In this document: positions 4,071 through 43,425 of the stretch, piece after piece
Layout of the letters: each line of letters starts with the position of its first letter
Numbering within the stretch: the first letter of the stretch is position 1
DNA from: an uncultured Candidatus Saccharibacteria bacterium
Lineage (GTDB): Bacteria; Patescibacteriota; Minisyncoccia; Phycocordibacterales; UBA9973
DNA length: 64,000 bases
Direction: 5' to 3'
Assembly: GCA_964596395.1 (NCBI GenBank)
Contig: CAZQSY010000002.1
Span: 34,339-98,338 of the forward strand
Notes under the pieces: generated by a model
What the model was told of the DNA's origin: nothing
What the model saw: only the letters and a program-made list of their open reading frames with translations
Databases searched by the model: none
Translations under genes and position numbers: made by a program

Positions 4071-4138
4071 GTTGTCTTGTGATTAAAAAAACGCCTTACT
4101 TGATAAACTTCAACTTCCATGATAGCATGCAGAACACT

Positions 4139-4390
4139 ATGGCGAAAATGTGTGATATTACGAAAAAGGGCTCGTTTGTCGGGGGCGGATATTCCAACCG
4201 CACCCGCGCGACCAAATTCAACCCGACCGGCAAAGCGCGGAAGTATCCGAACCTGCAAAAAAAGAAAATTTTCGTCCCTGAGCTCGGCAAAAGCATGTCT
4301 TTGCAGATTTCAACCAAAGGTCTGCGCACGATGAAAAAGAACGGCGCCTACTCGACGCTCCTCAAAGCGGGGCTGGTGAAAGCGAAATAA
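4139..4390 (+). CDS. rpmB: 50S ribosomal protein L28
   Basis: MAKMCDITKKG...TK...PNL...KG pattern matches L28; start refined to an internal ATG of ORF 4079..4390. Confidence 0.75.
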   Translation: MAKMCDITKKGSFVGGGYSNRTRATKFNPTGKARKYPNLQKKKIFVPELGKSMSLQISTKGLRTMKKNGAYSTLLKAGLVKAK

Positions 4391-6117: not shown

Positions 6118-6639
6118 CTAGAACTGTCGCCCTAATATATTTTTCGAGTTTCTGGGATTAAACAAAATTTCGCTATCTTTTAGCAAGTAAACCTTCTTAA
6201 TATCCAACTTCAGCATGTTCCCCCAACACACATCACAACACCACCAATGTCCCCACAAATATAAATCAACGTTTTTTTCCGAAAACCCATCCTTGATTAA
6301 CTTCTCGGTTGCGCGGTATTCGGCGTGACTTTTCTTATTGGCGCATCCGGGACACATCCAATATTTTTCACCCGTAGGTATGTGTAATAAGTGTCTTATG
6401 CAGTATTTTTTATGTATATTGATAAAAAGTTTGTTAGATAAAGGGTTTCTGTTTGAGGCAGTAACCAAAATCTGACCGTCGTGCACTAACGCAACTCCAG
6501 TAGGCTGTTGCTGGTCGTTAGAAAATTTAGCCTCTTCTCTGGCTCGAGCCATGAAATTATTTTCAATGTCAACACAAGAAACGCTACACCCTTCCGGTAG
6601 ATAAGGATATTTTATATTTCTGGCCTGCGTGTTTCCCAT
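6118..6639 (-). CDS. CMP/dCMP deaminase-family zinc-binding protein (atypical)
   Basis: VALVHDGQILVTASNRNP ... HAE ... CCDVC resembles the dCMP deaminase core; extra Cys pairs (CPGC, CSVSC); true start may be the internal MARAREEA. Confidence 0.5.
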   Translation of the reverse strand: MGNTQARNIKYPYLPEGCSVSCVDIENNFMARAREEAKFSNDQQQPTGVALVHDGQILVTASNRNPLSNKLFINIHKKYCIRHLLHIPTGEKYWMCPGCANKKSHAEYRATEKLIKDGFSEKNVDLYLWGHWWCCDVCWGNMLKLDIKKVYLLKDSEILFNPRNSKNILGRQF

Positions 6640-6656
6640 GCGATATAATATACGCT

Positions 6657-7505
6657 ATGACCACCTTTGACACAATCTATCAGAACATTATTGGGAAAAT
6701 AATGAGAGAAGGCGTGGAGGAGCTTAACGAGCGTACGGGGCACAAGATAAAAATTCTGCCGGGCGTAAATTTTCAAATCGATGTCGAGAAGGATGGCTTC
6801 CCTATCCTAACCTTGCGTAAAAATCCGATAAAATCTCCCATCGCTGAGCAAGTTTGGTTTTTGACTGGAGAAAAAAATACTAATTTTTTAAGAAAATATA
6901 CAAAAATGTGGGACGAGTTTACCGAGGCAGATGGAACTATAACTTCAGCTTACGGATACCGTTGGAGACATCATTTCGGCAGAGACCAAATTGACCAACT
7001 TATAAAACACCTTACCGAAGAACCTCATTCCAGACAGGGAGTAGTGATAACCTGGGACGCATCAGATGACGGATTATATGGCAAAGGATTGAAAGCAACT
7101 TACAAAAAAAACGCGCCGTGTCCTTTTGCTTTTACCGCAAACATAATCGGCGGCCGTCTTTGTTTACACAACATAGTGCGGTCTAACGATATGATGCTGG
7201 GCTGCCCTTTTGATACATTTGGTTTCTGCTTGCTCATGTATGCTCTGGCACAAAAGCTTGAAGTGCGCCCCGGAATATACACGCACACGATTTCTAACGC
7301 GCACATTTATGATACACACTATGAAGGAGCAAGGGAACTGTTACGCAGAACAAACTCACATGAAAATATTTTCCCGGTACTTCCAAAAAATATTTACGAT
7401 AGAGCTTTTCATAAAGATGAAACATTGGTAGAGGAAATTTATCAATCGTTTGCGCCTTATTTCAAGCCAAACGAACCTATTACCGGTCTTGATATAATAA
7501 AATAA
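6657..7505 (+). CDS. thymidylate synthase (ThyA)-family protein with an atypical active site (possibly dCMP-specific)
   Basis: 282 aa; aligns by eye to ThyA over its length (WFL.G..N, WDE, RSxD, catalytic Cys in APCP); PCH is replaced by PCP and the conserved PFNIASYALL by PFDTFGFCLL. Confidence 0.85.
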   Translation: MTTFDTIYQNIIGKIMREGVEELNERTGHKIKILPGVNFQIDVEKDGFPILTLRKNPIKSPIAEQVWFLTGEKNTNFLRKYTKMWDEFTEADGTITSAYGYRWRHHFGRDQIDQLIKHLTEEPHSRQGVVITWDASDDGLYGKGLKATYKKNAPCPFAFTANIIGGRLCLHNIVRSNDMMLGCPFDTFGFCLLMYALAQKLEVRPGIYTHTISNAHIYDTHYEGARELLRRTNSHENIFPVLPKNIYDRAFHKDETLVEEIYQSFAPYFKPNEPITGLDIIK

Positions 7506-8002
7506 TGATTTCTATCATTGCCGCTATCGGGAAAAATAACGAACTTGGGAAAGATAACACTCTGCCTTGGCGCCTGCCGGCGGATATGAAACACTTCAAA
7601 GAAATCACCTCAGGACACGCGGTAGTAATGGGACAGAAGACCTTTGAATCCATCGGTTCGCCGCTCGCCGGCAGGCGCAATATTGTGATGTCAAAAGACC
7701 CTTCATACGATACTCCCGGGACAGAGGTAGCGCATTCGCTAGAAGAACTTGAAAAAATTTTGAAAAACACTGTGCCGCTTGAAGAAGAAGTTTTTATCAT
7801 TGGTGGTGGGCAGATATACAAGCTCATACTAGAGAAAGCAGACCGGCTTTACATCACGCATGTGCTTGAATCTTTCCCCGAAGCGGACACTTTTTTCCCA
7901 GAGATAAATTCGGCTATCTGGAAAGAGTCCTCCCGTGAAGAACACGAGCCGGACGACAAAAATCCGCATCGTTATGCTTTTTCGGTGTACGAGAGAATTT
8001 AA
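7505..8002 (+). CDS. folA: dihydrofolate reductase
   Basis: MISIIAAIGKNNELGKDNTLPWRLPADMKHFK is the classic DHFR N-terminus; start overlaps the upstream stop (ATAATGA). Confidence 0.9.
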   Translation: MISIIAAIGKNNELGKDNTLPWRLPADMKHFKEITSGHAVVMGQKTFESIGSPLAGRRNIVMSKDPSYDTPGTEVAHSLEELEKILKNTVPLEEEVFIIGGGQIYKLILEKADRLYITHVLESFPEADTFFPEINSAIWKESSREEHEPDDKNPHRYAFSVYERI

Positions 8003-8328
8003 GGGTCTTCGGGTGTTCTGACTCTTACAAAAATATCTTTCCCTTCGGGTGTCTTTTCTTTCCTGTATTTTCTTTTTTTATTAATCTCGATTTTCCTAGT
8101 TACTTCTTTCTCTAGGTCAAATCCAAAAATCTCGCATATGCCGAGCAGAAAAATGGCGACATCTGCAAGCTCCTCCGCCACACCATCTTCTCCGCGATTA
8201 TGTTTCTTGAACGCTTCAGAAAGTTCTTCGTGAGCGCGGCAAAATTCTTGGGCGATATCGGTCGTGTTAAAACCTTTTTCTATTTTATTCCGCATTACCT
8301 CCTTTTGCAGTTGCTTCAGGTTTACCAT
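7999..8328 (-). CDS. MazG-like nucleoside triphosphate pyrophosphohydrolase
   Basis: 109 aa; EELSEA...EELADVAIFLL is the MazG/NTP-PPase EExxE/D core. Confidence 0.65.
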   Translation of the reverse strand: MVNLKQLQKEVMRNKIEKGFNTTDIAQEFCRAHEELSEAFKKHNRGEDGVAEELADVAIFLLGICEIFGFDLEKEVTRKIEINKKRKYRKEKTPEGKDIFVRVRTPEDP

Positions 8329-8329
8329 T

Positions 8330-8716
8330 TTATTTTTTGCAAATAATTTTTTTAATTCCTAAGCTATTGGCCATCTTTGCGCACGCTTCGCAAGGCGCAA
8401 CTTCACAATACATTGTGGCACCATTCAAAGAAATATCAGAATTTAATGCTTGCTTCATAGCATTATGTTCGGAATGAATTGTCCTAGCGCAATAACTACC
8501 AACCTTTCCATCATGCCCGACATCACTGCAGTGCGGTAATCCAGAAGCTGAACCCAGATATCCAGTAGAGAGAATTCTGTTGTCTCGGGTTATAACACAA
8601 CCCCTACCGCCTCGGTCGCAAGTAGCGCGCAAACTCACCGCATCAACTATATCCAAAAAATATTCATCCCAGGACGGTCTCTTGTATTTTTCAGATTTTC
8701 CGGCGAGTTTCTTCAT
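8330..8716 (-). CDS. deoxycytidylate (dCMP) deaminase, ComEB-like
   Basis: WDEYFL...HSEHNAM...APCEACAKM zinc-binding motifs of the cytidine/dCMP deaminase fold. Confidence 0.8.
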   Translation of the reverse strand: MKKLAGKSEKYKRPSWDEYFLDIVDAVSLRATCDRGGRGCVITRDNRILSTGYLGSASGLPHCSDVGHDGKVGSYCARTIHSEHNAMKQALNSDISLNGATMYCEVAPCEACAKMANSLGIKKIICKK

Positions 8717-8754
8717 TCCTCTAAATATACTCTGGGGATGAAAAAATTACAACA

Positions 8755-8790
8755 AATCAAAAAGCGCCCGAGAGGGCGCTTTCATTATTT
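8755..8790 (-). terminator. intrinsic terminator downstream of rplK
   Basis: hairpin GCGCCCgagaGGGCGC followed by a T-run on the minus strand. Confidence 0.6.
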
Positions 8791-16663: not shown

Positions 16664-17218
16664 TTATTTATAATCCGGGCTTTCTTCTGGAATTCCGGCG
16701 CTGTGATTAGCAAAGCGAGCCAAAGCATACAACGCGCTCGAAAGGCGGTTTAAGTATGCGAGCGTATGCGGGCCTACTGTGTTTTTACCCTCCTCGTTCG
16801 CCACCACTACCCTTCTCTCGGCCCGGCGGGCGATGGTGCGCGCAATATCAAAAAGCGAAGCCAGTTCCGTTCCCCCGGAAATAAAAAAACTTTTAATCGG
16901 CGGAAGCTCTTTCTCTATTGAATCAGTGATGCTTTCAAGCTCTTTGACTTTTTCTTCGGTCACAGACATCTTTGAACCGGCCACTTCGGCTTGAACGATG
17001 AAAAGGTTTTTCTGGATATTGCAAATCTGTTCTTTGGCGTTCACGCCTCCGGGCAAAAGAAAATTTTTCTCTCCTGCTTTCACTTTGCATAAACCGAGGA
17101 AAGAATTTATTTCATCCAACGAACCCAGCGCTTCGGCTACCGCCGAGCTTTTTGAAATTCGCTGGTCGCATCCGAAGGTCTTCATTGTTCCCCCGTCTCC
17201 TTTTCTGGTGTAAAGCAT
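16664..17218 (-). CDS. ATP:cob(I)alamin adenosyltransferase, PduO-type
   Basis: YTRKGDGGTM N-terminal signature of the PduO/MMAB family. Confidence 0.8.
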   Translation of the reverse strand: MLYTRKGDGGTMKTFGCDQRISKSSAVAEALGSLDEINSFLGLCKVKAGEKNFLLPGGVNAKEQICNIQKNLFIVQAEVAGSKMSVTEEKVKELESITDSIEKELPPIKSFFISGGTELASLFDIARTIARRAERRVVVANEEGKNTVGPHTLAYLNRLSSALYALARFANHSAGIPEESPDYK

Positions 17219-21731: not shown

Positions 21732-23435
21732 TTACAAAAACTCCCCTTGATAACATTTTTCGCAGTAAACAATCTCCGGTCTGTCGGGTGAAAAAGCGGT
21801 ATTTATTTCCGCCTGGCACTTGGCGCATCTTCTCCTCCACAATTTTGGCGGATTCAAGCGGGCAAACCGGGCGTTCTCCCGGCATTTCGGACATTCGCGA
21901 GGCGCGGGAAGCCCTAGTTTCCGCAATAGGTCAAGCTCGCCTTTGGTAACCTTGTACCCCCTCTTGCAGTTGGCGCACTCTATAACCTCGTTCAAAATAC
22001 CATCCTTCGTTTGTTCAATCGTGTTAGGCAACGAACCGGCCCCCATTGTTGTCTTGTAAACCGGCTCTGGCCGGTCATCCCAAGCGTACCCTCCGGCAAG
22101 CGCTTCTTCTTTAGTTTTTGGTAAAAAACGCATGGCGTTTGATTTGTTGTAGGCGAACCTGGAAAATTCCAGCGGGAAAAATTCTCCGTAATAAAATTCC
22201 CGGCCAAGCTTATCTGTATACGGATTTTTCTTCATATCTTCAATAATTTGCGCTTTCAATTTTTCATATTCTTCTTTCGAATATTGCTTGTTTAAAATGC
22301 AGTATGATTTTCTCTTTAAATTCACACAGCCGAAATTATTTTTCCCGGCGATGTTCCAAATGCAATACTGCAAATTTAAGCAGTCCGGAAAACAATAAGA
22401 GGAAAACATGACATTATTAACATTTTCCCCAACATGCACGCTCTCGTAAACTAGCGTCGCATTATTGCCCCAAACAGAATAATCAAAACAATCTTTCGCT
22501 GGCGGCACAGTCACAAATTGCGTCCATTTGCAATTTTCTACACTGTCGCATAAATAAACATTTTTTGAATTCTTAGAGGTAAACACGTATTCGCCGGTAA
22601 CATCCAGGTTAAGGGTATGCCCTGTATATACCCGGTACGGCTTGGTAAGCCATAAATCAAAGGCCTGTTTTTTAAATTTCTCAAGTCCTGCAAAAGATTT
22701 TAAATTCAATTCCTCCAACTTTTGGAAATACTCTTCTTTGGTGTATTTGATATTAAAAATACAGTAGGATTCTCCGCGAAGATTCACACAACCGACACAG
22801 TTTCTACAATTGAAACAACTTCTTGAAAACCAAACATCCACGCATGATTCGCATCTCTCCGAAAAAAACGTGCGATAACACTTATACAAACCGAATGACC
22901 CGTAACATAGTTCCGAATCCCGTACACTTAAACAATCCATACTGTACTTAACTCCATTCAACATGGAAGAGTAAAAAACGTTTTCGCAAAAATCTGCCCC
23001 AATAACCATATAACAATCTTTGCACCATGCAACGCCGCTTGTGTAAGTTGAATTTTTGAGGCTTGTGTACAAACTTTCCACCCCGACGTATGGAGTTTTT
23101 AAAGAAAGCTCCTTTACCTGATCAAAAAAAGGCCTCGAAGGGTCGTACTCGGTAGCATACTCGGTGCCATCCCACGAATCACCCCACCAACATTTCGGAC
23201 AGTAAACCGCTACTTTATCTTCGGGGGAATACATGGATAAAGTTTTTTCTCCGCACAAGTTACATGTACGCCAAAAGAGATAATACATATTCGCGAAAGA
23301 AAATCGTCGATACATCCGGCACTCTGGGCACCACGTCGGCGGCGGGACATTCATTTTTTGGTAGAAAGAAAAATCCTCAGATTCAATTACGAATTCTTTT
23401 TTACAGTTCTGGCAAATCTTAGTTTCGTTTTCCAT
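21732..23435 (-). CDS. cysteine-rich protein, paralog A (567 aa) with N- and C-terminal CxxC...CPxCR zinc-ribbon domains and a Cys-ladder core
   Basis: about 50 Cys; N-terminus KICQNCKK..FYQKMNVPPPTWCPECR..RTCNLCG..YCPKCWW; C-terminus CANCKR..PAPRECPKCR..RRCAKCQ..YCEKCY; internal CxxCxxCxxCVNL...YCI.N..Y.KEEY repeats. Confidence 0.8.
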   Translation of the reverse strand: MENETKICQNCKKEFVIESEDFSFYQKMNVPPPTWCPECRMYRRFSFANMYYLFWRTCNLCGEKTLSMYSPEDKVAVYCPKCWWGDSWDGTEYATEYDPSRPFFDQVKELSLKTPYVGVESLYTSLKNSTYTSGVAWCKDCYMVIGADFCENVFYSSMLNGVKYSMDCLSVRDSELCYGSFGLYKCYRTFFSERCESCVDVWFSRSCFNCRNCVGCVNLRGESYCIFNIKYTKEEYFQKLEELNLKSFAGLEKFKKQAFDLWLTKPYRVYTGHTLNLDVTGEYVFTSKNSKNVYLCDSVENCKWTQFVTVPPAKDCFDYSVWGNNATLVYESVHVGENVNNVMFSSYCFPDCLNLQYCIWNIAGKNNFGCVNLKRKSYCILNKQYSKEEYEKLKAQIIEDMKKNPYTDKLGREFYYGEFFPLEFSRFAYNKSNAMRFLPKTKEEALAGGYAWDDRPEPVYKTTMGAGSLPNTIEQTKDGILNEVIECANCKRGYKVTKGELDLLRKLGLPAPRECPKCRENARFARLNPPKLWRRRCAKCQAEINTAFSPDRPEIVYCEKCYQGEFL

Positions 23436-23436
23436 T

Positions 23437-25107
23437 TTAATAAATTTCCTGCTGGTAGCACCTCTCGCAATAGATTATATCAGGCAAATCTGGAGAATAC
23501 GCCGTTTCAAATTCATTCTGACACCCCTCTTTCATGCATTTTCGATGCCAAAGTTTGTTTGGCCCGCGATTTTTCATTCTTCTTTCATTTCTGCAATCAG
23601 GGCACAGCCTGGGCAACGGAATGCTTAATTTTTTATAAAAAAGAAACTCATTCTGAATGATGCGGTAATTTTTTGAACAGGCGATACAAACAAAAACTTC
23701 CTTAGACGCGTCAAAACCAATATCTTCAATTCTCTCTGGGATTTCCTCCCACTTTTTTATTTCCTTGCCATAAGTGCCGCGGGCGGTGTCTTCCCATTTA
23801 AAACCTTGTGACAAAGCTTCCTCTTTCGTAAGCGGGAATTCCTCCATCGCGGTAGTTTCGTTGTAGCCGAAAAGCATCGCCTCTTTCGGGAAAAATTCGC
23901 CGTATATTCCTTCATTTTTTAGGCCGGTAATAATTTCCTCCCTAATTTTTTCATATTCATCTTTGCTATATTGCTTGTTCAAAATACAATAATTCCCCTT
24001 CTTCAGAGCCATACAGCCGAAAAGATTTTGTCCATTCGGGCAGTTAAAGGAATATTCCGCAAAATTTGAACCCCAGCAATTGTGGCAGCAAATGCAATTA
24101 GACGCCTGAATGCCGGTATTGGTTGAATTGTAAATTCTCTCGGCGGTGCGCCCGGCCGTGTGGCAATCCACGCAGTCCCGCGCTTCGCGCCATACATGAG
24201 ACGAGTAAGCGCAATCCTCGGCATCGTAGGAATGGAAGCAGGAGCGATTATTTTTTACATTCACTTCATAATTACCCGTCGAGTTCGTAGACATGTAAAT
24301 CTCGGCATATTTTCTGGGAAATTTTTGAGCGAACTTTTTAAATTCTTTTCTGAAATTTTCCACTCCTTCGTAAGTATCCAGCTTGTAGTTTTTCAGCTTT
24401 TCTGCGTATTCTTCTTTATTGTATTCAACATTCCAAATGCAGTTGGATTTATTGCGCAAATTGACGCAACCCAGACAATTCACACACCCGCGGCAATTTA
24501 AAAGAAAGGAACTGTCGGTACAGCTATAACAGCTTTTGCAATATTTTAGACCGTAGGAATCATGGCAATCATCCGCCTCGTAAGAAAGCTCTACCTGGTG
24601 GGTGTAAGAGACGTCCACACAATCCTTGGTCTTCTGAATCCAATAACAGTGAACGCAATTCTCGTTGTTGGAAGACTCCACTATCATGTAGCAATTCCGG
24701 CAGTCGGCCACGTAATTCACGTACTGGCAGTCAACATTCCGCATGCCGACCAGCGCCGGCTTTGGAACTTTTTTGTAAAGTTCTCCAACTTGTTCAAAGA
24801 AGGGCTTGCTTTTGTCGTAAGAAAATCCGAATGACATCGGGTCCCACTGGTCGCTCCACCAGCACGGCACGCAATACACTGGCGTTTCTTTATTCGGCGA
24901 CCATATGGTAATCATGCTCTCTCCGCACAGGTCGCAATTCCGCTTGTAAAAATTCCTCTCGTTGCGGAAGATATGCCTTAACTGCGCCCGGCAATCCGGG
25001 CACAAGCGGGGTGCCTGCACGCCCATTTTTTCGTAATACTTAAAATCCTCCAAACCAATCGAAAAATCATTCTGGCAATTTTTACATTTTCTCGTTTCGT
25101 ATGTCAT
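23437..25107 (-). CDS. cysteine-rich protein, paralog B (556 aa)
   Basis: same architecture as paralog A; 1-bp gap from A. Confidence 0.8.
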   Translation of the reverse strand: MTYETRKCKNCQNDFSIGLEDFKYYEKMGVQAPRLCPDCRAQLRHIFRNERNFYKRNCDLCGESMITIWSPNKETPVYCVPCWWSDQWDPMSFGFSYDKSKPFFEQVGELYKKVPKPALVGMRNVDCQYVNYVADCRNCYMIVESSNNENCVHCYWIQKTKDCVDVSYTHQVELSYEADDCHDSYGLKYCKSCYSCTDSSFLLNCRGCVNCLGCVNLRNKSNCIWNVEYNKEEYAEKLKNYKLDTYEGVENFRKEFKKFAQKFPRKYAEIYMSTNSTGNYEVNVKNNRSCFHSYDAEDCAYSSHVWREARDCVDCHTAGRTAERIYNSTNTGIQASNCICCHNCWGSNFAEYSFNCPNGQNLFGCMALKKGNYCILNKQYSKDEYEKIREEIITGLKNEGIYGEFFPKEAMLFGYNETTAMEEFPLTKEEALSQGFKWEDTARGTYGKEIKKWEEIPERIEDIGFDASKEVFVCIACSKNYRIIQNEFLFYKKLSIPLPRLCPDCRNERRMKNRGPNKLWHRKCMKEGCQNEFETAYSPDLPDIIYCERCYQQEIY

Positions 25108-25160
25108 TTTTCATTTGTCAATAAACCTTGCGATAGCAGAAAATATTGACATTTGTATCT

Positions 25161-26906
25161 TTAATAAACTTCTTTCTGATAACATTCCTTACAGAAAATT
25201 TTCTCTGGTCTCTCGGGAGCATACATCGTTTCAAATTTATTTTGACACTTGTCTGCGTGGCCGTGATTTTTTAAATCGCACATGCATTCTCTTTGGTAAA
25301 AAGAAAACGGATTGGTCCATCTCAGCCTGTCGTAGTATCGGCAATTCGGGCATTTTCTCGGGAGAGGCAGGTTCATTTGCCGATAAAAAGAGAGCTCATC
25401 GGGCAGAATCCTAAAGGCGGAAACGCACAACGTTTTCGTATTCCCGTCGCCTGGACATTTTATGGTCTCTTCACAAATGTTATCCGATATATCTTCTATA
25501 CTATCAGGGATTTCTTCCGCACTTAATGTCGGCTCGTAATACTTCCTGTCTATATCTTTCCATTTGCTTCCAAAGGCCTTAATTTCTTCTTCAGAGATTC
25601 GCAATTCTTCATACGCTAAAGATTCATTGTACGCAAATGGAGAAAAAGCAGGTGGAAAATATTCTCCAAATCCGTATTTTTTCCCAGTAACATCAATATA
25701 AGGCGTCTCTTCCATGTGTCTTTTTATCTTCGCTACCAGCGCTTCATAATCCTCTTTCGTGTACTGCTTGTTCAAAACACAATATTGCTTTTTATCCAAG
25801 CCGACGCAGCCAAAACAATCCGCGCACCCTTTGCAATTGTCGCAATAAAACAAGTTCCGGCTTCCCCGGCCGCAGCTAAAACAAAAAATAACCCTGTTTC
25901 CTCCCCGACCGCTAATGACAGTTTCGTAGCATTCCTCAAGTTTACCCGGGAAAACAAGGTCTCGCGAATCTTTCACTACGTTTCCGCCGAGAAATATATC
26001 TTGGACGTTCTCCGAGTTAACCACAAAGTAGCACCGGCGCGCGGATTTGGAATTCTCTACAAAATCGCCGGAGGAATCTATGGAATTTTTTATGTTTGCA
26101 CAGCGGTGAACGGCCGACTTGTATACTTCAGCAAAAATTTCTTTGGCTTCGGTTTGTCCTGAAAAAATATTCAGCCTGAGCGCGGCCAGAGCATCCTTAT
26201 ACCCTTCTCGCGTAAGCTGTCTATTTTTAAAGACATAGCTTTTATTGCGAAGATTTGACGAGAGACAGCAATTTACGCAATTTGAACAATCAAACAAAAA
26301 ATGTGATTCAACGCATTGGTCAGAAGCAATCAAGAAAGAAGAATTATAGTTCTGGCTTGCCTTTACTAACTCGTATCCCCGATCATTATTTCTAAGTATT
26401 AAAGAATCAAGGCAGTTCTTGCTGTCAAAAACGAAACGCGAATATTTAACATTCTCAGACCGAAGAACACTGAAAGACAAGTAAACCTCTTTGCTGGTAT
26501 AACAATAATTTGCATATTCGCAACCGGCGCCGTTCCTTTCGTTCTGGTCCATGGCTCGATGCGGAACTTTTTCCTTAAGTTCGCGGAATTGCAAGAAAAA
26601 ATTTTTTGAGAAATCGTATTCTCTGCCGTAATCTCTGCCGTCCCAATCGTCGCCGAGGTGGCATTTCACGCACCATATGGCAAACGGGGATTCTGGCGCG
26701 TACATTGAAACTACGGGTTTGCCGCACTTTCCGCAGTTTCTCTTGTAAAGCGAACGCTCATTTACAAAACACATCTTGCGCAAGAATCGGCAGCGCGGGC
26801 ACCAGGTCGGCGGTGGGACGCCCATTTTTTGGTAAAAAGAAAAATCTTCCGGCTCAATCGTGAAGTCTTTTTTACAGTTTACGCAGATTTTTGTTTCGGC
26901 CTGCAC
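25161..26906 (-). CDS. cysteine-rich protein, paralog C (581 aa)
   Basis: same architecture; first CxxC of the C-terminal ribbon is degenerate. Confidence 0.8.
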   Translation of the reverse strand: MQAETKICVNCKKDFTIEPEDFSFYQKMGVPPPTWCPRCRFLRKMCFVNERSLYKRNCGKCGKPVVSMYAPESPFAIWCVKCHLGDDWDGRDYGREYDFSKNFFLQFRELKEKVPHRAMDQNERNGAGCEYANYCYTSKEVYLSFSVLRSENVKYSRFVFDSKNCLDSLILRNNDRGYELVKASQNYNSSFLIASDQCVESHFLFDCSNCVNCCLSSNLRNKSYVFKNRQLTREGYKDALAALRLNIFSGQTEAKEIFAEVYKSAVHRCANIKNSIDSSGDFVENSKSARRCYFVVNSENVQDIFLGGNVVKDSRDLVFPGKLEECYETVISGRGGNRVIFCFSCGRGSRNLFYCDNCKGCADCFGCVGLDKKQYCVLNKQYTKEDYEALVAKIKRHMEETPYIDVTGKKYGFGEYFPPAFSPFAYNESLAYEELRISEEEIKAFGSKWKDIDRKYYEPTLSAEEIPDSIEDISDNICEETIKCPGDGNTKTLCVSAFRILPDELSFYRQMNLPLPRKCPNCRYYDRLRWTNPFSFYQRECMCDLKNHGHADKCQNKFETMYAPERPEKIFCKECYQKEVY

Positions 26907-27979: not shown

Positions 27980-28345
27980 CTACAACGACGGGTCAATTAC
28001 GGGCGAGGGGGAATTTAAAATCTCCTTTGACTTTTCTTTGCGTGCTTCGAAATAATCAAGAACTCCGCGTATCTTTTTCTCGTCCAGGTTTTCCGGGAAA
28101 GAAACATTTTCAACCGAGGCGCTCTGTTCCATACTCGTTTCCCTGAAAAAATACCACCCGAATGCCATAAACACGGCGACTAAAAATAGGACAACCAAGA
28201 CAACCAACCGAAAATAGAGGTCGGGCTTTATCCAGGAATCCCCCTTCCTGAATTTTTTCTCTCTTTTTAAAAATTTAATCTTTGGAATTTCCATTTTTAT
28301 TCGTTGATAAAACTCAGAAGCTTGACCTCTAGCGTCGCCGACCAT
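27980..28345 (-). CDS. hypothetical membrane protein (last gene of the pilMNO-like cluster)
   Basis: single TM, overlaps the upstream gene; position suggests a pilus assembly component. Confidence 0.35.
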   Translation of the reverse strand: MVGDARGQASEFYQRIKMEIPKIKFLKREKKFRKGDSWIKPDLYFRLVVLVVLFLVAVFMAFGWYFFRETSMEQSASVENVSFPENLDEKKIRGVLDYFEARKEKSKEILNSPSPVIDPSL

Positions 28346-28842
28346 TCCGGGTCTTTCTTGTCTTTGCTTGAGACACTTTCGCCGACGGTGTCTTTACTCA
28401 AGTTTATCGAATTAAACGACAATATATAGGGAGAATTTTCCAGCAGGTTTATAAATTTGTAAATGGCGCTAAAGGTGCCTGATGTTTTCAGCGCGACGGT
28501 CATGTAAGCGCCGCTTTTTTCCGTGTTTACCGAAGCGATTTCCAGCGAGACATCCGACTTTCGGGCAAGATTTTCTATCCCGTCCAGAAAAGCCGACGCC
28601 TCCGAACTTCGCACAAAATGACTCTCTATCTCGGCTCTTTCGATTTCGGTATCTTTCATCAGACGAGCCAAAATTTTCAGGTTGTTTTTCTTTACCTCTT
28701 CGGCCTGCCAGTTCGCTTCTTTTTCTAGAGAAGATTCATTCCTAAATTCGACCACGCGGTAAATAAAAAGGAAAGCGAGACAGGAGAAAAGAAAGAAGAC
28801 GGCCGAGACAATGAGCGCTTTTTTTTGAAAAATTGAATTCAT
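28297..28842 (-). CDS. PilO-like pilus assembly protein (putative)
   Basis: N-terminal TM plus coiled coil, gene order after the PilM/PilN-like genes. Confidence 0.45.
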   Translation of the reverse strand: MNSIFQKKALIVSAVFFLFSCLAFLFIYRVVEFRNESSLEKEANWQAEEVKKNNLKILARLMKDTEIERAEIESHFVRSSEASAFLDGIENLARKSDVSLEIASVNTEKSGAYMTVALKTSGTFSAIYKFINLLENSPYILSFNSINLSKDTVGESVSSKDKKDPEWSATLEVKLLSFINE

Positions 28843-28848
28843 TTAAAT

Positions 28849-29478
28849 TTAAATCGGCGGAAGCTGTGACCGGCGCGGGGTCAAAGTCAGGGTAAAAGTT
28901 ATATTTGACGCCCGAACCAGATTGGATATCGGAAGTTCGACCTTGCTAAAAGCCGCGCCGGCCTCCAGCGACTCGCGAAAACGAATCAGCGCTTCGCGGT
29001 CCGCGGCCGTTCCGGCTACGTTTACGATCTCGCCCCTACCGTCCTTTCCCGCGGGCGTGCTTGCCTCGTTTTTATAATATACTCCGATAATTTTTATCCC
29101 GCCCGTTCTTCTTGAAAGAATTTCGTCGAGAACCGTCCGAGAAAAAATATTTTTATTTTTCTCCGCTTCCTCAACCACGGCGATTTTTTTTCTCAAGGTT
29201 TCTACCGTCTGCAGTGTATTCATGTCCGACTCCGAAAAAGCATTCTCTGCCTCCTGTAATTTTATCTTATCTGCCACAGAGCTTGCCTGTATCGAAGAAA
29301 GAACGTAAGACGGAAGCAAGAGGAACAAGCCGACTAGGACCGAAGAGCCGAGCATGAGCAGAGAAAAAGCGGCCAGCCGGCAGAGAAAATCTTTCTCCAT
29401 TTTTTTCTTCTCTTCGTTTGGAATAAGGTTAATCATGTTCAAAATCCCCGAGGGCAAGCCCCAGCGCCGCGGCGGCAC
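28849..29478 (-). CDS. PilN-like pilus assembly protein (putative)
   Basis: N-terminal TM, follows pilM with overlap. Confidence 0.45.
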   Translation of the reverse strand: MPPRRWGLPSGILNMINLIPNEEKKKMEKDFLCRLAAFSLLMLGSSVLVGLFLLLPSYVLSSIQASSVADKIKLQEAENAFSESDMNTLQTVETLRKKIAVVEEAEKNKNIFSRTVLDEILSRRTGGIKIIGVYYKNEASTPAGKDGRGEIVNVAGTAADREALIRFRESLEAGAAFSKVELPISNLVRASNITFTLTLTPRRSQLPPI

Positions 29479-30511
29479 CGAGCGATTCCCTCAAGGTAAT
29501 TTCCGGCACATTTTCCTCCACGCCTCCGATGTTCACCCACACATTGGCCAGTTCCACCGGTGTTTTCAAACTCACCGAAAGATATTCAGTAAGACCGATA
29601 AGATTCGAGTCCCCTCCGCACAAAAGAACTTTTTTAATCGGAGGCCTGTCTTTTCCTTCTTCATCTTTATGCGTGTGCCAATATAAAAAATGCTTGACCA
29701 CTTCATCCCGCAAAACAGACACAGCGTTCAAGAGAACCGAAAAGGTCTCGGTATTTTCCGAGCCACGCCGAAGGCCGAATTCTTTTTTCTTTTTTTCCGC
29801 CTCTTCAAAACTTACTTTAAAGTTCTTTTCAATCATCTCTGAGAGCATCGCTCCCCCCAAATCCAAAGTCGAAGTAAACACAGCCGCTCCGCCGGAAATG
29901 ACAAAAATTCCGGTGCGCTTCTTGCCAAAATCGACAATCATGTACGTGCCCGGGTCGCCTTTTTTCACGACGCATCGGGCAATCGCCTGCGCTTCAAGCT
30001 CGAAAGAATTGGCCGACATCTTTGAGCTTCTAAAAACAGACAGGTATTCTTCGATTACATTTTTGGATATGGCGGCCACCTGTAATTTCAGATCCTTTTC
30101 GTCTTCACCTAATTTTTCGTAGTCGAAAATGGCTTCCTCGGGAGGAATGGGTATGTATTCTTCGAGCGAAAGTTCGATTCCCTCGCGCAAGTTCTCCAAA
30201 CCGTCTTTGCCAAGTTTTAAATTAAAAAGATAAACCTGTTCCTCGGGCAAGGAAACACGCACCGATTTTATTCCCTCTTCTTGCCGCAAAGAGTCCAAGA
30301 TTCTCCCCATTTTATCTATATCCCTTATCTTCCCGCTCTCAATAATCCCGGAGGGAATTTTCCTCTCTCCGTACCGGCGCACCCGGATACCGTCTTTTTC
30401 TTTTGCCAGTTCTGCAAATTTTATTGATTCGTCCGAAATATCTAATCCGAAAGACGGCGTGGCCAGGAAACTAGGTGTCGGAAAAAACCTGCTGAAAGTT
30501 TCGGCTAACAT
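29429..30511 (-). CDS. pilM: type IV pilus assembly ATPase-fold protein PilM
   Basis: actin-like fold protein; FGLDISDESIKFAEL N-terminus typical of PilM. Confidence 0.8.
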   Translation of the reverse strand: MLAETFSRFFPTPSFLATPSFGLDISDESIKFAELAKEKDGIRVRRYGERKIPSGIIESGKIRDIDKMGRILDSLRQEEGIKSVRVSLPEEQVYLFNLKLGKDGLENLREGIELSLEEYIPIPPEEAIFDYEKLGEDEKDLKLQVAAISKNVIEEYLSVFRSSKMSANSFELEAQAIARCVVKKGDPGTYMIVDFGKKRTGIFVISGGAAVFTSTLDLGGAMLSEMIEKNFKVSFEEAEKKKKEFGLRRGSENTETFSVLLNAVSVLRDEVVKHFLYWHTHKDEEGKDRPPIKKVLLCGGDSNLIGLTEYLSVSLKTPVELANVWVNIGGVEENVPEITLRESLGAAAALGLALGDFEHD

Positions 30512-31627: not shown

Positions 31628-32155
31628 TTGTGGTATACTGGATTAGTGCCTGAGGACTACAGAAGAAACCCAAATACTAGCTGTATAGTTTGCAAAAAGG
31701 CAATTTACAGAAGACCTAGTGAGATAGAAACCAATGAAGGACGGGTTTTTTGTAGTGTACTTTGTTACGGGATTGGTTGTAGAAAGGAAAAACCATGTTC
31801 AGTTTGCGGAAAACTAATCTTAGCAAGATTTAATAAAAAAACTTGCAGTAGAGGCTGCGCCAATAAACACAGGGAGGGTATTAAATACAAAATCGGCAGA
31901 CCTAAAGATAAAGCCGTAATGTTCAGAGCGTTGAAGTTGAGGTTGATGAGAGAAAGGGGTAAAAAATGCGAGCGTTGCGGCTACAGTAAGTATGAAATTT
32001 TGCAAGTGCATCATAAAAATAGAAATAGGTTGGACAATCGGACCGAAAACCTAGAGATAATTTGTCCTAATTGTCATTACGAGGAACATCTATTGAAGAA
32101 GAGCTGGCTTAACGATATTGTTGAAAAAGAGACAGAAAATAATATACTGGGCTAG
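31628..32155 (+). CDS. HNH endonuclease with N-terminal Cys-rich zinc-finger region
   Basis: CERCGY...LQVHHKNRNRLDNRTENLEIICPNCH HNH motif; AT-rich relative to neighbours. Confidence 0.8.
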   Translation: MWYTGLVPEDYRRNPNTSCIVCKKAIYRRPSEIETNEGRVFCSVLCYGIGCRKEKPCSVCGKLILARFNKKTCSRGCANKHREGIKYKIGRPKDKAVMFRALKLRLMRERGKKCERCGYSKYEILQVHHKNRNRLDNRTENLEIICPNCHYEEHLLKKSWLNDIVEKETENNILG

Positions 32156-34118: not shown

Positions 34119-34898
34119 ATGGTTCGTAAAACCTATAAAATTGACCTGAAGAACAAGGCGGAGGAACTAAGGAGAAATGGTTGTAGCTACAAGCAAATAT
34201 ACAACAGGTTAAAAATACCGAAGAGTACTTTATCCACTTGGTTCGGCTCTAAATATCCAGGTGTGTTTGACCGGAAAAAGCAGCTGGAGCACCTGGCTCG
34301 AGTAAGACTAATATCACTTAAAAGAAGAAAGGAGAAGAAAAATTTAGAACAATCAGAACTGGAAAGAAAAGTAGCCAGCGAAATAAGATATTACCCAACA
34401 CGAAATATAGGATTTTTAAAATCGGTGCTGTCTGCCTTGTACTGGGCAGAAGGAGGCAAGTATCGCGGAAGCCCGGTTGTTTTCACCAATACTGATCCAA
34501 AACTCGCAAAATTATTTATAACCTTACTAAGAAAATGCTATAGCGTAGACGAGAAAAAACTCAGAATACGCTTGCACTTGCATCATTATCATTCTGAGGA
34601 AAAAAGTAAAAGGTTCTGGTCAAGGTTACTTGATGTGCCCTTAAGTCAGTTTGGCAAAATTTACATAAAGAAAAGAAGTAACTCAAGAAAATTTAGAGAA
34701 AATTTTATGGGAATATGTTTTATAAAATATTATGATAATATGCTTCAGAAAGAAATAATGGTCCTGGCAAACCAATTATCTGAGAAAATAACATGCCCCC
34801 GTAGTTCAATGGATAGAACACGACTTTGCGGAAGTCGTGATGCAGGTTCGATTCCTGCCGGGAGCACCACAATAAAGCTAGAAACAGCAGAGTTTTAG
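34119..34898 (+). CDS. HTH-containing homing-endonuclease-like protein (possible LAGLIDADG-type); the ORF reads through the downstream tRNA-Arg
   Basis: N-terminal HTH (CSYKQIYNRLKIPKSTLSTW); LSALYWAEGGKY...VVFTNTD resembles a single LAGLIDADG motif; no in-frame stop before the tRNA gene. Confidence 0.35.
   Translation: MVRKTYKIDLKNKAEELRRNGCSYKQIYNRLKIPKSTLSTWFGSKYPGVFDRKKQLEHLARVRLISLKRRKEKKNLEQSELERKVASEIRYYPTRNIGFLKSVLSALYWAEGGKYRGSPVVFTNTDPKLAKLFITLLRKCYSVDEKKLRIRLHLHHYHSEEKSKRFWSRLLDVPLSQFGKIYIKKRSNSRKFRENFMGICFIKYYDNMLQKEIMVLANQLSEKITCPRSSMDRTRLCGSRDAGSIPAGSTTIKLETAEF
34794..34868 (+). tRNA. tRNA-Arg (GCG), one acceptor-stem mismatch
   Basis: GCCCCCGTAGTTCAATGGATAGAAC..., anticodon loop TTGCGGA, encoded CCA. 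Confidence 0.65.
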
Positions 34899-36047: not shown

Positions 36048-38489
36048 ATGAACAAATTTATGAATAAAACAAAAAAATCGTTAGTGAGTTTGATGTTAGG
36101 CGTTTTGGTCGTTACCGGCCTTTTCGGCGTTTCAAACGCTGGAACTGCTGAAGCAGCGACAAGCTCAGTAAATTCTACCGGCATGAGTTCCCTCACCTGC
36201 GACAGCGTAAAGTTTTGGGGCTATATCAACACCGGCTCGGCTTCAAGCACATACCCGGTAAAGGCTTGGTTTGAATATGGCACGAACGAAAATGAAGTGC
36301 TTTATGGTTCAGCGAACAATATTAAAACTCCTCAACCGCCTTTCGGACCTTACACTTCGGCTTTTCAAAATATAAGAGTGGAACAGCCAGTAACCGGCCT
36401 TACTCCGCAAACCACTTACCACATGAACCTAGTGGCAAGTATGCGCATTAACGGTACTTGGTACGACGTCAGAGGAAATTATGTAGATACCTTCACCACC
36501 CCCGCCTGCCCGGTTACTGCTAAATACACCGTCACTTCTTCGGCGACCGTGGGCGGATTTATTAGCCCGAACGGAGCGCAGACGGTAAACGAAGGAAAAA
36601 TTTTGAGCTTTTACGCTTCTCCGAATAAGGGATACTCCGGCCCGGTTTTTGGCGGAACCTGCGGAGGAAATTCGAGCGGAAACAATTACACCACCAAACC
36701 GATAACTAAGGATTGTTCGGTAACGGCCACCTTCACCAAGGCGCCGGCCGTAACTTATACCCTTTCGGTAAATAAAATCGGCAAAGGATTCGTCAACGGA
36801 AGCGGAATCAATTGCGGCGGCGCTTGCCAAATCACCAAGAATGCGGGCGAGACCGTAAGTTTGTCAGCTTCTCCAGATAACGGATACACTTTCTCGGGCT
36901 GGTCGGGCGCGTGCTCTGGCACCGGCTCTTGCTCTGTCACCATGAACAGCAACAAATCGGTAACGGCGACCTTTAATGTTTTAAAACCTAATGCCACCTT
37001 GACCGTTTACCCTGAGAATGTTTCTTACAACGGCAATGCGGCACTCACTTGGAATTCAAAGAACGCGACCTCCTGCCAAGGCATCGGCTTTGATACAGCC
37101 GGCGCTGTCTCTGGAAAGAAAGTTCTCGCCAATCTTACGGCTACTAAGACATATAAAGTAACCTGCACGGGTGAGGGTGGCAGCGCTTCGGCTGAAGCGA
37201 TGGTAACCGTGGGAAACCCGGCCAACCCGAGCGTTGATTTCTACGCTACCCCGAACCCGGTTGATTACGGAAAGAGCGCGACCCTAAGCTGGTCTTCAAA
37301 GAATGCCACCGTCTGCACCGCTTTCGGCGCATGGTCTGGCAAGAAAGGAATTTCAGGCACGGCTTCTACCGGCGCGCTGACCTACACTAAAACCTACACT
37401 ATAAAGTGCGAAGGAAATTACGGAACCAACCCGGCTGTGAAAACGGTAAGGGTAGAAGTAAATCCTGAAATTATAATCCTGAAGCCGACGGTCTCTTTGA
37501 CTGCTTTCCCTGAAAGCATTCAGTATGGCGGATACTCTGCGCTTAAGTGGACTTCAAAGAACGCCGATTCTTGCACGAGCAACGATTTCGCCACCGGCGG
37601 AGCCGTGAACGGCTCTAAGGTAGTTTCCCCTTCTTCGACCGAGACCTACACCATCACCTGCACGGGCGAGGGCGGCAGCGCAGAAGACAGCGCCACCATT
37701 ACTGTGGGCGCCCCGTCTCATCCGGCGGTCTCTTTCTCGGCCAATCCTTATAAAATTTACTCCGGCGAATCCTCTACGCTGGCCTGGTCTTCAAGTAAGG
37801 CAAAATACTGCGTAGCAGGAGGCGCGTGGGCTGGTAAGAAAGGAATTTCTGGCTCGGCTTCTACTGGAGAGCTCTACAAAGACAGCACTTATTCAATAGT
37901 TTGCTACGGCGCAGACGGCACTACACCGGCCCGGGCAGAACTTACAGTTCGCGTGATAGAAAAACCGGAACCGCCGAAAGCTCTCCCGAAAGTAGACCTT
38001 AGGGTAAACGGCGTAAACGGACCGGTGAGCATCCCGCATATAAACGAGGGTGCTACTCTGACCTGGACTTCTGAGAACGCCGACCGATGCGAGACATTAA
38101 ACGGAGCCAACGGTTGGCAGAACCAGAGGAATTGGAAGACAGAAGGAGAATTCCAGACCGGCTCATTGCAGAGCGGAAAGACCTTCAGGATAATCTGCCA
38201 CAACAGCGCCGGCTCGGCTACCGACACGGTAAGAATCATAGTTGAAGATAAAATCTGCGCCCCGACTGCCACCTTAAACGCCACCAAGAGAAGCGAGCAG
38301 GACGGCGGAGGATACATATTGAGATGGTCTTCGACTTACGCTGACTCTTGCAAAGCGGATTGGACCAACAGCACCGCTCCAGAAGGCAAGAAATCCGTGC
38401 ACCCCGACAAGACAACTACTTACAAAATAACTTGCACCGGCCCGGGAGGCACCGTCACTGCCTACACCACGGTGAATCCGGCGAATTAA
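36048..38489 (+). CDS. large secreted repeat protein (813 aa) with InlB-B-repeat-like and Ig-like Cys-pair domains
   Basis: signal peptide; repeated modules of about 100 aa L.W.S.NA..C...G.W.G.K...G...TG.L..TKTY.I.C.G; YTLSV..GKGFV.GSGINCGG.C...GETVSL.A.P..GYTFSGWSGAC...C.V.M...KSVTATF matches the Listeria/Bacteroides (InlB B) repeat. Confidence 0.85.
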   Translation: MNKFMNKTKKSLVSLMLGVLVVTGLFGVSNAGTAEAATSSVNSTGMSSLTCDSVKFWGYINTGSASSTYPVKAWFEYGTNENEVLYGSANNIKTPQPPFGPYTSAFQNIRVEQPVTGLTPQTTYHMNLVASMRINGTWYDVRGNYVDTFTTPACPVTAKYTVTSSATVGGFISPNGAQTVNEGKILSFYASPNKGYSGPVFGGTCGGNSSGNNYTTKPITKDCSVTATFTKAPAVTYTLSVNKIGKGFVNGSGINCGGACQITKNAGETVSLSASPDNGYTFSGWSGACSGTGSCSVTMNSNKSVTATFNVLKPNATLTVYPENVSYNGNAALTWNSKNATSCQGIGFDTAGAVSGKKVLANLTATKTYKVTCTGEGGSASAEAMVTVGNPANPSVDFYATPNPVDYGKSATLSWSSKNATVCTAFGAWSGKKGISGTASTGALTYTKTYTIKCEGNYGTNPAVKTVRVEVNPEIIILKPTVSLTAFPESIQYGGYSALKWTSKNADSCTSNDFATGGAVNGSKVVSPSSTETYTITCTGEGGSAEDSATITVGAPSHPAVSFSANPYKIYSGESSTLAWSSSKAKYCVAGGAWAGKKGISGSASTGELYKDSTYSIVCYGADGTTPARAELTVRVIEKPEPPKALPKVDLRVNGVNGPVSIPHINEGATLTWTSENADRCETLNGANGWQNQRNWKTEGEFQTGSLQSGKTFRIICHNSAGSATDTVRIIVEDKICAPTATLNATKRSEQDGGGYILRWSSTYADSCKADWTNSTAPEGKKSVHPDKTTTYKITCTGPGGTVTAYTTVNPAN

Positions 38490-38521
38490 CATCACCCGAT
38501 TATTAATTATTAATTAAAATT

Positions 38522-42834: not shown

Positions 42835-43425
42835 GTGTATAATACCGGCATGATAGGAAGCATCAGGGGCAAAATCACCTGGAAAGACGAAAAATCGGCT
42901 GTAGTAGAAGCCGGGGGAGTCGGCTACAACGTAAACCTGCCCGAGAGCACCGCCGGCGGACTTGAAAAAGACGGGGAGGTGTTCCTTTGGGTGCATACTC
43001 ATGTGCGCGAAGATATGCTTGATTTGTATGGTTTCGCTGAGAGAGAAGAATTGGCATTTTTTGAAATGCTCCTCGGTGTGCCCGGGGTCGGGCCAAAAGG
43101 GGCACTGAATGTATTGAATATCGCGCCGGTAAAGACCCTGAAGAGAGCGGTGAGTTCGGGAGACCTCGCGTACTTGACCAAGATATCGGGGATAGGAAAG
43201 AAAACGGCGGAAAAAATAATCTTGGAACTGCGCGACAAAGTCGCGGACGGCGAAGACAAAAAAGAAACCAGCGCGGGAATGCGCGAGGAAATCGACGCGC
43301 TGGAAGCGCTCAAATCGCTCGGCTATTCGCAGCAGGAAGCGAGAGACGCGCTGAAAAAGACAAACAGCCCGGATACAAACGCGAAAGTGCGCGAGGCACT
43401 GAAAGTTTTAAATAATCATGCCTGA
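42835..43425 (+). CDS. ruvA: Holliday junction DNA helicase RuvA
   Basis: MIGSIRGKI...VGY.V N-terminus, HhH region, C-terminal domain. Confidence 0.9.
   Translation: MYNTGMIGSIRGKITWKDEKSAVVEAGGVGYNVNLPESTAGGLEKDGEVFLWVHTHVREDMLDLYGFAEREELAFFEMLLGVPGVGPKGALNVLNIAPVKTLKRAVSSGDLAYLTKISGIGKKTAEKIILELRDKVADGEDKKETSAGMREEIDALEALKSLGYSQQEARDALKKTNSPDTNAKVREALKVLNNHA

Follow-up and report, generated by a model that had tools for sequence, protein, structure and literature searches.

A homolog of thymidylate synthase (TS) with an active site of the cytosine type lies in a compact five-gene cluster within a 64-kb stretch of a Patescibacteria/Paceibacteria chromosome (contig CAZQSY010000002.1; this whole stretch is hereafter termed the window). 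We interpret this cluster as a chromosomal thymidylate module of the Paceibacteria that is built on a deoxycytidine monophosphate (dCMP) methyltransferase of the type encoded by phage Xp12, rather than on a ThyA specific for deoxyuridine monophosphate (dUMP), and in which the usual order of deamination and methylation is reversed; we assign this interpretation a probability of roughly 55%. The cluster comprises an atypical zinc deaminase (here termed deamA), the TS homolog, dihydrofolate reductase (DHFR), a small MazG-like nucleoside triphosphate (NTP) pyrophosphohydrolase, and a second deaminase (deamB). All five open reading frames (ORFs) lie at the positions and on the strands, and belong to the families, that the initial annotation had given for them.

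Active Site and Subfamily of the Thymidylate Synthase Homolog

The TS gene (6657–7505, plus strand) encodes a protein of 282 aa that matches PF00303 with 176 bits. The protein has the TS fold and the catalytic Cys that are expected of ThyA; the Asn177 and His147 that are hallmarks of ThyA are absent. Its residues C155, P156, D186, and F88 correspond to C146, H147, N177, and W83 of the Escherichia coli enzyme (whose numbering is used below), such that Asp stands in place of Asn177 and Pro in place of His147. In alignments with solved thymidylate synthases (HMMER, PDB), the Asp appears where the sequence GCPFDTFGF of the window protein faces G(L/V)PFNIASY, and Pro follows the catalytic Cys. Asp177, Cys146, and Phe83 occur in all 120 of the closest database homologs, and Pro147 in 118 of them (MAFFT columns). 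Conservation was also assessed by a locus scan with one genome per GTDB species, which returned 353 loci, from which 80 species-representative loci were fetched with flanks of up to 10 kb; Asp177 and the catalytic Cys are present in all 80, and Pro147 in 78. The residues Ser167 (also listed as S176) and Arg126, which mark the use of deoxyribose and not ribose substrates (MilA study, PMC5175136), are retained.

Position 177 is described as setting pyrimidine specificity (PMC8670742): the Asn to Asp exchange turns TS from dUMP to dCMP methylation, and Asp at this position strongly disfavors dUMP by mutagenesis. Across metaviromes, positions 177 and 147 best separate cytosine-modified from unmodified contigs (PMC8670742). 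The window TS is accordingly classed here as a predicted dCMP C5-methyltransferase, which would yield 5-methyl-dCMP and dihydrofolate (DHF). The initial annotation made the role of the cluster hinge on the specificity of its ThyA-like enzyme, and this specificity proves legible from Asp177 and Pro147. The same two residues argue against one of the options it offered, the canonical Gram-positive route from deoxycytidine triphosphate (dCTP) via dCMP and dUMP to thymidine monophosphate (dTMP).

The subfamily was delimited by a search of 1.84 billion cluster representatives, of which the best 150 at 50% identity were inspected. Asp177 is found in 124 of these 150 representatives, 100 of which also carry Pro147, and canonical enzymes (W83/R127/H147/N177/D205) first turn up at an E-value of ∼1e-33. 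A TS-family match was obtained for 4203 phage records, and those that rank highest are Xanthomonas and Stenotrophomonas phages of the Xp12 group, long known for their 5-methylcytosine DNA. By blastp, the window TS is 36% identical to the Xp12 TS (177 bits), as compared with 29% for E. coli ThyA (107 bits) and 22% for gp42 of phage T4 (35 bits; the query is identical to PDB 1B49). In the alignment, the Xp12 TS carries Pro147, Asp177, and Phe83, as does the window TS. Experimentally, the Xp12 TS and five of seven metagenomic Asp177 TS homologs produce 5-methyldeoxycytidine (5mdC) (bioRxiv 10.1101/2024.12.05.627091).

Beyond the catalytic core of the window TS, ∼50 further residues end in a conserved Y-x-P-x-P...I tail that aligns with the tails of the E. 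coli and Xp12 enzymes, and the LGxPF folate motif is kept. The T4 dCMP hydroxymethylase, by comparison, is without the C-terminal TS tail, releases tetrahydrofolate (THF), and has no requirement for DHFR (PMC5175136). This combination of an open folate site, no tail, and independence from DHFR differs from what is found in the window, where the tail is present and DHFR is coupled. An AlphaFold2 (AF2) model of the TS, which served fold ranking only and not active-site geometry, was searched with Foldseek and matched ThyA structures at full length (∼255–265 aligned columns); no structure of the T4-type hydroxymethylase was among the top 50. Architecture and context, i.e., the retained tail and folate motif, the coupled DHFR, and the serine hydroxymethyltransferase (SHMT) encoded nearby in relatives, thus favor a methylase over a hydroxymethylase. 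A one-to-one correspondence with the T4 toolkit, as first proposed for the cluster, survives in that the gene set is of the nucleotide-modification type; it fails in that Xp12 is the closer relative and that the tail, folate motif, and DHFR point to a methylase.

Phage Modules and Fusion Proteins

Both Xp12 and phage ZQG1 encode a pyrophosphohydrolase (in the Xp12-type module, a nucleotide pyrophosphohydrolase/HAD hydrolase), TS, deaminase, and DHFR in a row, and the DNA of both phages is fully substituted with 5-methylcytosine (5mC) (bioRxiv 10.1101/2024.12.05.627091). The TS is the one member of the window cluster that belongs to this phage subfamily; neither the deaminase nor DHFR nor the pyrophosphohydrolase closely resembles the Xp12 proteins. 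Of the four nearest Asp-type relatives outside the Paceibacteria whose context was examined, three lie in phage-like contigs that carry genes for DNA polymerase A, helicase, ligase, or ribonucleotide reductase (RNR), not all in each. A deaminase is encoded beside TS in all three of these contigs, and PRA-PH upstream in one. The fourth relative adjoins a murD-type ligase gene and thus seems to be cellular.

Fusions of Asp-type TS with a deaminase and with PRA-PH are known. Those seen here include P0267 (433 aa), P0318 (424 aa), P0271 (432 aa), and P0242 (466 aa), and the fusion partners are dCMP-deaminase, PRA-PH, and HNH endonuclease domains, as well as an unannotated N-terminal domain of 190 aa. 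The fusion with the 190-aa domain adjoins murD in the seemingly cellular contig (L084).

Partner Enzymes of the Cluster

The DHFR (FolA) gene (7505–8002, plus strand; 165 aa, a full-length match to PF00186 with 197.9 bits) shares 1 nt with the TS gene (TAATG) and is translationally coupled to it. The enzyme, which is only 22% identical to the DHFR of Xp12, is predicted to recycle the DHF released by reductive methylation. On the opposite strand, the gene for the small, all-alpha MazG-like pyrophosphohydrolase (7999–8328, minus strand; 109 aa) converges on DHFR, and the two stop codons have a common TTAA at 7999–8002. This 4-bp overlap and the 17-bp gap between the divergent genes deamA and TS are both seen in the sequence, as had been reported for the cluster. 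The MazG-like protein scores just under the cutoff for PF12643 (26.1 bits; cutoff 27), has matches to PHROG 3301 ‘pyrophosphatase’ (E-value 7e-13) and PDB 4qgp (E-value 5e-5), and weakly matches 1vmg, MazZ, and DCTPP1. Its predicted role is to supply dCMP from dCTP and/or to act as a sanitizer of 5-methyl-dCTP.

The deaminase deamA (6118–6639, minus strand; 173 aa, PF00383 with 40.6 bits) has the CDA-fold motifs expected of a dCMP deaminase, H-A-E and C-x-x-C, and belongs to a family of 983 homologs, in which all organism-named members are from Paceibacteria/Patescibacteria. The residues H105-A-E107, C135-x-x-C138, and H76/C80/C96/C99 are invariant in this family, and the last four plausibly form a second zinc site. 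A tryptophan-rich strand at the active site (WGHWWCCxxCW) and a conserved N-terminal YPYLPEG are further features. The initial annotation had singled out this deaminase as unusual in its extra Cys pairs, CCDVC motif, and N-terminal extension. The motif and the extension are borne out. Among the extra Cys residues, those of the H76/C80/C96/C99 set are invariant, and the N-terminal C18/C22 pair is variable. A mis-called start as the source of the extension was rejected in view of the conservation of YPYLPEG.

The AF2 model of deamA has a predicted local distance difference test (pLDDT) value of 82, and its best Foldseek match is the dCMP deaminase of Streptococcus mutans (E-value 1.7e-5, TM ∼0.5). 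The family profile likewise matches this enzyme (E-value 2e-7), followed by TadA (7e-5). No match to deamA was found in NCBIfam, in PDB with the single sequence, in PHROG, or by tblastn in 50,697 phage records, so that there is no sequence tie to characterized 5mC deaminases. We predict that deamA deaminates a 5-methyl-dC nucleotide, most likely converting 5-methyl-dCMP to dTMP. Selectivity for 5mC is frequent among deaminases whose genes lie in cis with an Asp177 TS, and these enzymes have been proposed as suppliers of thymine nucleotides; such deaminases can also act on 5-hydroxymethyldeoxycytidine (5hmdC) (bioRxiv 10.1101/2024.12.05.627091).

The second deaminase, deamB (8330–8716, minus strand; 128 aa, PF00383 with 68.9 bits), is ComEB-like. 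Residues 6–125 match the S. mutans dCMP deaminase (2hvv) with an E-value of 1.8e-24, and with 88 bits against the TIGR02571 (ComEB) cutoff of 219, it is a homolog and not a certified equivalog; it is also 26% identical to the Xp12 deaminase (E-value 7.5e-11). The MazG gene begins 1 nt past the deamB stop codon, and deamB is co-transcribed with MazG as an accessory member of the cluster.

Proposed Route to Thymidylate

In the proposed route, the MazG-like pyrophosphohydrolase would first convert dCTP to dCMP, which the Asp-type TS would then methylate with 5,10-methylene-THF to give 5-methyl-dCMP and DHF. The coupled DHFR would regenerate THF, which in many relatives could be reloaded by the adjacently encoded SHMT. 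Finally, deamA would turn the 5-methyl-dC nucleotide into a thymine nucleotide (dTMP from 5-methyl-dCMP being the most likely case), and Tmk would act next. The textbook order, ‘deaminate, then methylate’, would thereby be reversed, with deamB as an optional second deaminase.

Deamination at the level of the monophosphate is favored on two grounds. A cell that uses cytosine must keep 5-methyl-dCTP (5mdCTP) out of its nucleotide pool, and the entry of 5mdC into the DNA of E. coli needed a promiscuous phage kinase, in that T4 gp1 had to be added for 5mdC to appear in DNA (bioRxiv 10.1101/2024.12.05.627091).

Conservation and Inheritance of the Module

The lineage-named loci among the 353 are all from Patescibacteria (Nomurabacteria, Paceibacterota, Taylorbacteria, and Parcubacteria, with some labeled Saccharibacteria). 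By the source names of its close homologs, the window belongs to the Patescibacteria/Paceibacteria and is Nomurabacteria-like. Within the 80 fetched loci, deamA lies divergently adjacent to the Asp-type TS in 77, and DHFR is present in 75, mostly directly downstream of TS. MazG is found in 57 of the 80 and is absent from more distant loci of the Taylorbacteria/Parcubacteria type, and a ComEB-like deamB occurs in only nine. The conserved unit is therefore deamA, the Asp-type TS, and DHFR, usually with MazG, and deamB is accessory. Of the five-gene unit first described, the core of deamA, TS, and DHFR, along with the usual MazG, holds across relatives, and the inclusion of deamB does not.

The cluster is bordered by a DEAD-box helicase gene on one side and by rplK-nusG-secE on the other, and core bacterial genes flank it (fusA, rpsG, rpsL, the DEAD-box helicase, rplK, nusG, secE, uvrABC, polA, and ruvABC). 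The site of the module, beside rplK-nusG-secE or beside SHMT, is conserved, and TS identity tracks nusG identity across loci (Spearman rho 0.72). The module appears to be chromosomal and vertically inherited in the Paceibacteria. Recent transfer by a prophage or cassette was considered and rejected in view of the ribosomal and core flanks and of the divergence of TS, which follows that of nusG.

The SHMT gene (glyA) occurs within 10 kb in 31 of the 80 loci, usually directly upstream of deamA (e.g., L088, 8180–9352), and completes an SHMT-TS-DHFR folate cycle. These loci form a compact block of SHMT and deaminase on one side and TS, DHFR, and MazG on the other; in the other common arrangement, to which the window belongs, a DEAD-box helicase gene takes the position of SHMT. 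Within a distance of 10 kb, 17 of the 80 loci also encode Tmk and an intact-looking Dut, along with NUDIX and CYTH proteins (e.g., L088, 2169–2597 and 3656–4363, and the P0007 contig). The idea that a reversed route makes Dut unnecessary was dropped in view of these intact-looking Dut genes.

In some relatives, MazG and rplK are separated by an insert. In the P0007 contig (11768–14668), the insert encodes an ATP-grasp ligase, an F420-ligase-like protein, a second DHFR/RibD_C-like protein, and a Vut_1 transporter, and it may represent a further cassette related to folate or deazaflavin.

Promoters and Probable Leaderless Transcription

The divergent spacer between deamA and TS (6640–6656, 17 nt) contains overlapping −10-like boxes for both strands. 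On the plus strand, TATAAT (6644–6649) ends 7 nt before the TS ATG, and on the minus strand, TATATT/TATTAT ends 7 nt before the deamA ATG; the −35 regions of both promoters fall inside the neighboring ORF. In relatives, the spacer is mostly 25–30 nt long, and TATACT or TATAAT ends 7 nt before the TS start; most of the 80 related loci share this promoter layout. The TS and deamA mRNAs are probably leaderless. Conserved −10 boxes and leaderless mRNAs would explain the short spacer, which had been judged to leave no room for two promoters: with leaderless starts, both −10 boxes fit.

Other genes of the window have a similar arrangement. A TATATT lies 7 nt upstream of the deamB start (8716), just after the rplK terminator hairpin; in a promoter and terminator scan, this region (8724–8783, minus strand) holds the promoter-like site TTGTAA-17-TATATT and the hairpin itself (8760–8783). 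Another TATAAT (7493–7498), located within the 3′-terminal part of the TS gene, precedes the DHFR ATG by 6 nt. Window-wide, a −10-like hexamer is located 5–9 nt upstream of 20 of the 58 genes (seven being a perfect TATAAT), as compared with a Shine-Dalgarno-like motif for 11 of the 58. Examples of the hexamers are those at 6644–6649, 7493–7498, and 8724–8729, and those upstream of 30511, 45551, 51881, and 57617. Leaderless transcription is likely the rule in this genome.

Evidence Against the Reversed Route and Alternative Explanations

Several considerations weigh against a reversed route to thymidylate. Gene content, active-site residues, the ranking of homologs, synteny, and fusions were observed directly; from these, we infer every substrate and product, as well as the phosphorylation level of deamination. 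The AF2 model of the TS is of moderate quality (pLDDT 69). The resemblance of deamA to dCMP deaminases is weak, with TadA and guanine deaminase scoring nearly as well, and genomic context, namely its near-obligate pairing with the Asp-type TS, is the sole basis for its proposed substrate. An engineered N229D thymidylate synthase reportedly keeps some dUMP activity (Liu and Santi, in 1992). Both Dut, in 17 of the 80 loci, and the ComEB-like deaminase, in some loci including the window, yield dUMP, for which the reversed route has no obvious fate. No ThyX, second TS, Dut, Tmk, SHMT, or RNR was found with Pfam among the 58 ORFs of the window, and since this evidence on other synthases covers 64 kb only, a canonical ThyA or ThyX may be encoded elsewhere in these genomes. 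Finally, mSCD-B5, the single characterized phage enzyme of its kind, uses triphosphates and not monophosphates (bioRxiv 10.1101/2024.12.05.627091).

The alternative that survives best, while still unlikely in our view, is a routine thymidylate operon, in which the TS would be an ordinary dUMP-methylating ThyA despite its Asp, the deaminases and Dut would supply dUMP, and DHFR and SHMT would close the folate cycle. The TS genes are indeed annotated as thymidylate synthase in public records, and canonical dTMP synthesis predicts the clustering of DHFR, SHMT, Tmk, and Dut with TS that is seen in relatives, as well as a ComEB-like dCMP deaminase such as that of the window. Profile scores are divided: the window TS marginally reaches the cutoff of one NCBIfam ThyA model, TIGR03284 (113.5 bits; cutoff 108.35), but lies far below those of the four other ThyA equivalogs, NF002497 (144.8 versus 327), NF002495, NF002496, and NF002499. 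The invariant or nearly invariant Asp177, Pro147, and Phe83 are those of verified dCMP methylases and of no verified dUMP enzyme, and Asp strongly disfavored dUMP in the mutagenesis cited above. The nearest relatives of the TS are moreover found in dCMP-modifying modules of phages. The initial annotation had reasoned that the cluster would be a routine operon if the same arrangement were found widely in relatives with ordinary ThyA residues; the arrangement is widespread, and the residues are not ordinary.

Distinctly unlikely is a second alternative, DNA modification as in Xp12, whereby 5-methyl-dCMP would be phosphorylated and incorporated, 5mC would replace much or all of the chromosomal cytosine, MazG would remove dCTP, and the deaminase would channel a share of the pool into thymine nucleotides. 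The fully 5mC-substituted phages Xp12 and ZQG1 encode this same set of enzymes, and the action of mSCD-B5 on triphosphates implies a 5mdCTP pool in such systems. A MazG-like enzyme that could exclude dCTP is encoded in 57 of the 80 loci, but more distant loci keep TS, deamA, and DHFR without it. The cluster has no visible gene for a promiscuous deoxynucleoside monophosphate kinase, such as the T4 gp1 that E. coli needed, and the kinase encoded near the module in relatives resembles an ordinary Tmk. The GC content (∼46%) is unremarkable, and we know of no cellular organism with pool-level 5mC substitution. That module-bearing Paceibacteria make thymidylate by the reversed route and also build 5mC into the chromosome from the nucleotide pool, with MazG excluding dCTP, is very unlikely in our estimation; if true, they would be the first cells in which a canonical DNA base is replaced at the level of the nucleotide pool.

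A T4-like dCMP hydroxymethylase, making 5-hydroxymethyl-dCMP for modified DNA or, after deamination, 5-hydroxymethyl-dUMP, is highly improbable: the Asp177 equivalent and an RSND motif are common to the window TS and gp42, and deaminases beside Asp-type TS can act on 5hmdC, but gp42 is a far poorer match than the Xp12 methylase (35 versus 177 bits), the tail and LGxPF are retained, an enzyme that releases THF has no need of a tightly coupled DHFR, and no glucosyl- or other transferase is encoded nearby.

Implications

To our knowledge, all cellular de novo thymidylate synthesis runs via dUMP and either ThyA or ThyX. In the literature, only phage work was found for a route through a dCMP methylase and a 5-methyl-dCMP deaminase, and papers on the Candidate Phyla Radiation (CPR) treat thyA as canonical; no paper was found that notes an Asp-type ‘ThyA’ in CPR bacteria or a cellular dTMP route via 5-methyl-dCMP. 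We lean slightly toward the view that a phage-type dCMP methylase module has been adopted here as a housekeeping pathway. If so, it would constitute a third cellular route to dTMP, based on an enzyme subfamily hitherto found only in phages, and CPR metabolic reconstructions that list ‘thyA’ as canonical would have to be revised. There would also be a bearing on the specificity of antifolates and of inhibitors of the 5-fluorouracil type, and one would have to ask whether genes have passed between CPR bacteria and phages whose DNA is modified. It would become a testable question whether any cell incorporates 5mC from its nucleotide pool. In addition, deamA would represent a new family, distinct in sequence, of candidate deaminases acting on 5mC; such enzymes have practical uses in prospect for methylome sequencing (bioRxiv 10.1101/2024.12.05.627091).

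Other Features of the Window

Several repair genes lie in the window, including those for a UDG-superfamily glycosylase (44919–45551, minus strand; 118.7 bits) and an Fpg/Nei glycosylase (43418–44362, plus strand), both beside uvrC, uvrA, and uvrB; if the DNA were rich in 5mC, the type of the former (acting on uracil or on T:G mismatches) would matter. The presence of a PduO-type cobalamin adenosyltransferase (16664–17218, minus strand; 150 bits) in a reduced CPR genome may point to an enzyme, encoded elsewhere, that depends on adenosylcobalamin, such as a class II RNR. A 103-aa ORF with a GTG start (4079–4390, plus strand) probably holds ribosomal protein L28 from an internal ATG (MAKMCDITKK...), a reading that is supported by a PF00830 gene at the equivalent position in a related contig.

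Three consecutive ORFs (21732–26906, minus strand) encode proteins of 567, 556, and 581 aa with no Pfam match except a weak treble-clef zinc finger, and this is the stretch of lowest GC (∼0.40). Type IV pilus genes (PilM, PilO-like) are located at 28297–30511. An HNH endonuclease ORF (31628–32155, plus strand) and a weak transposase-type helix-turn-helix match (34119–34898, plus strand) occur near a strand switch at ∼30.5–35 kb, possibly marking a small segment that is mobile or variable. Two probable surface proteins of 813 and 1265 aa (36048–42319, plus strand) contain InlB B-repeat, DUF11, and phosphatase-N-like domains.

Comparison With Known Systems

The module shares with the canonical thyA-folA pair the TS fold, catalytic Cys, folate motif, and C-terminal tail, as well as the coupling to DHFR and the presence of SHMT, Tmk, and Dut genes nearby. 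It departs from that pair in having Asp for Asn177 in every member and Pro for His147 in nearly all, in its near-obligatory deaminase partner of a novel lineage, and in missing most equivalog thresholds widely. With the gp56/gp42/Cd system of T4, it has in common an NTP pyrophosphatase that would feed dCMP to a cytosine-specific TS homolog, a deaminase alongside, and the Asp; unlike the window TS, however, gp42 is a distant protein without the tail and is independent of DHFR, and the window lacks genes for sugar transferases or other downstream modification.

Similar to the 5mC-selective deaminases of phages (mSCD; e.g., mSCD-B5), deamA is a member of the CDA/dCMP-deaminase superfamily that is encoded in cis with an Asp177 TS (77 of 80 loci). 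It differs from them in having no detectable sequence kinship and in its own YPYLPEG, H/C/C/C cluster, and WGHWWCCxxCW; mSCD activity is reported to be polyphyletic within the deaminase superfamily (bioRxiv 10.1101/2024.12.05.627091).

The closest counterpart is the module of Xp12. In contrast to the phage genes, those in the window are in a cellular chromosome, at a conserved rplK-nusG-secE site, and are seemingly vertical across hundreds of species; deamA has no detectable phage homolog, the genes are arranged in another order and in a divergent, probably leaderless layout unlike that of the phage, and the output of the window module is probably dTMP and not 5mC-containing DNA. The two nevertheless have the same four enzyme functions, the TS subfamily with Asp177, Pro147, and Phe83 is one in which Xp12 provides the best phage match, and the published logic of the phage system, in which thymine nucleotides are obtained by deaminating 5-methyl-dC nucleotides, matches that proposed here for the Paceibacteria.

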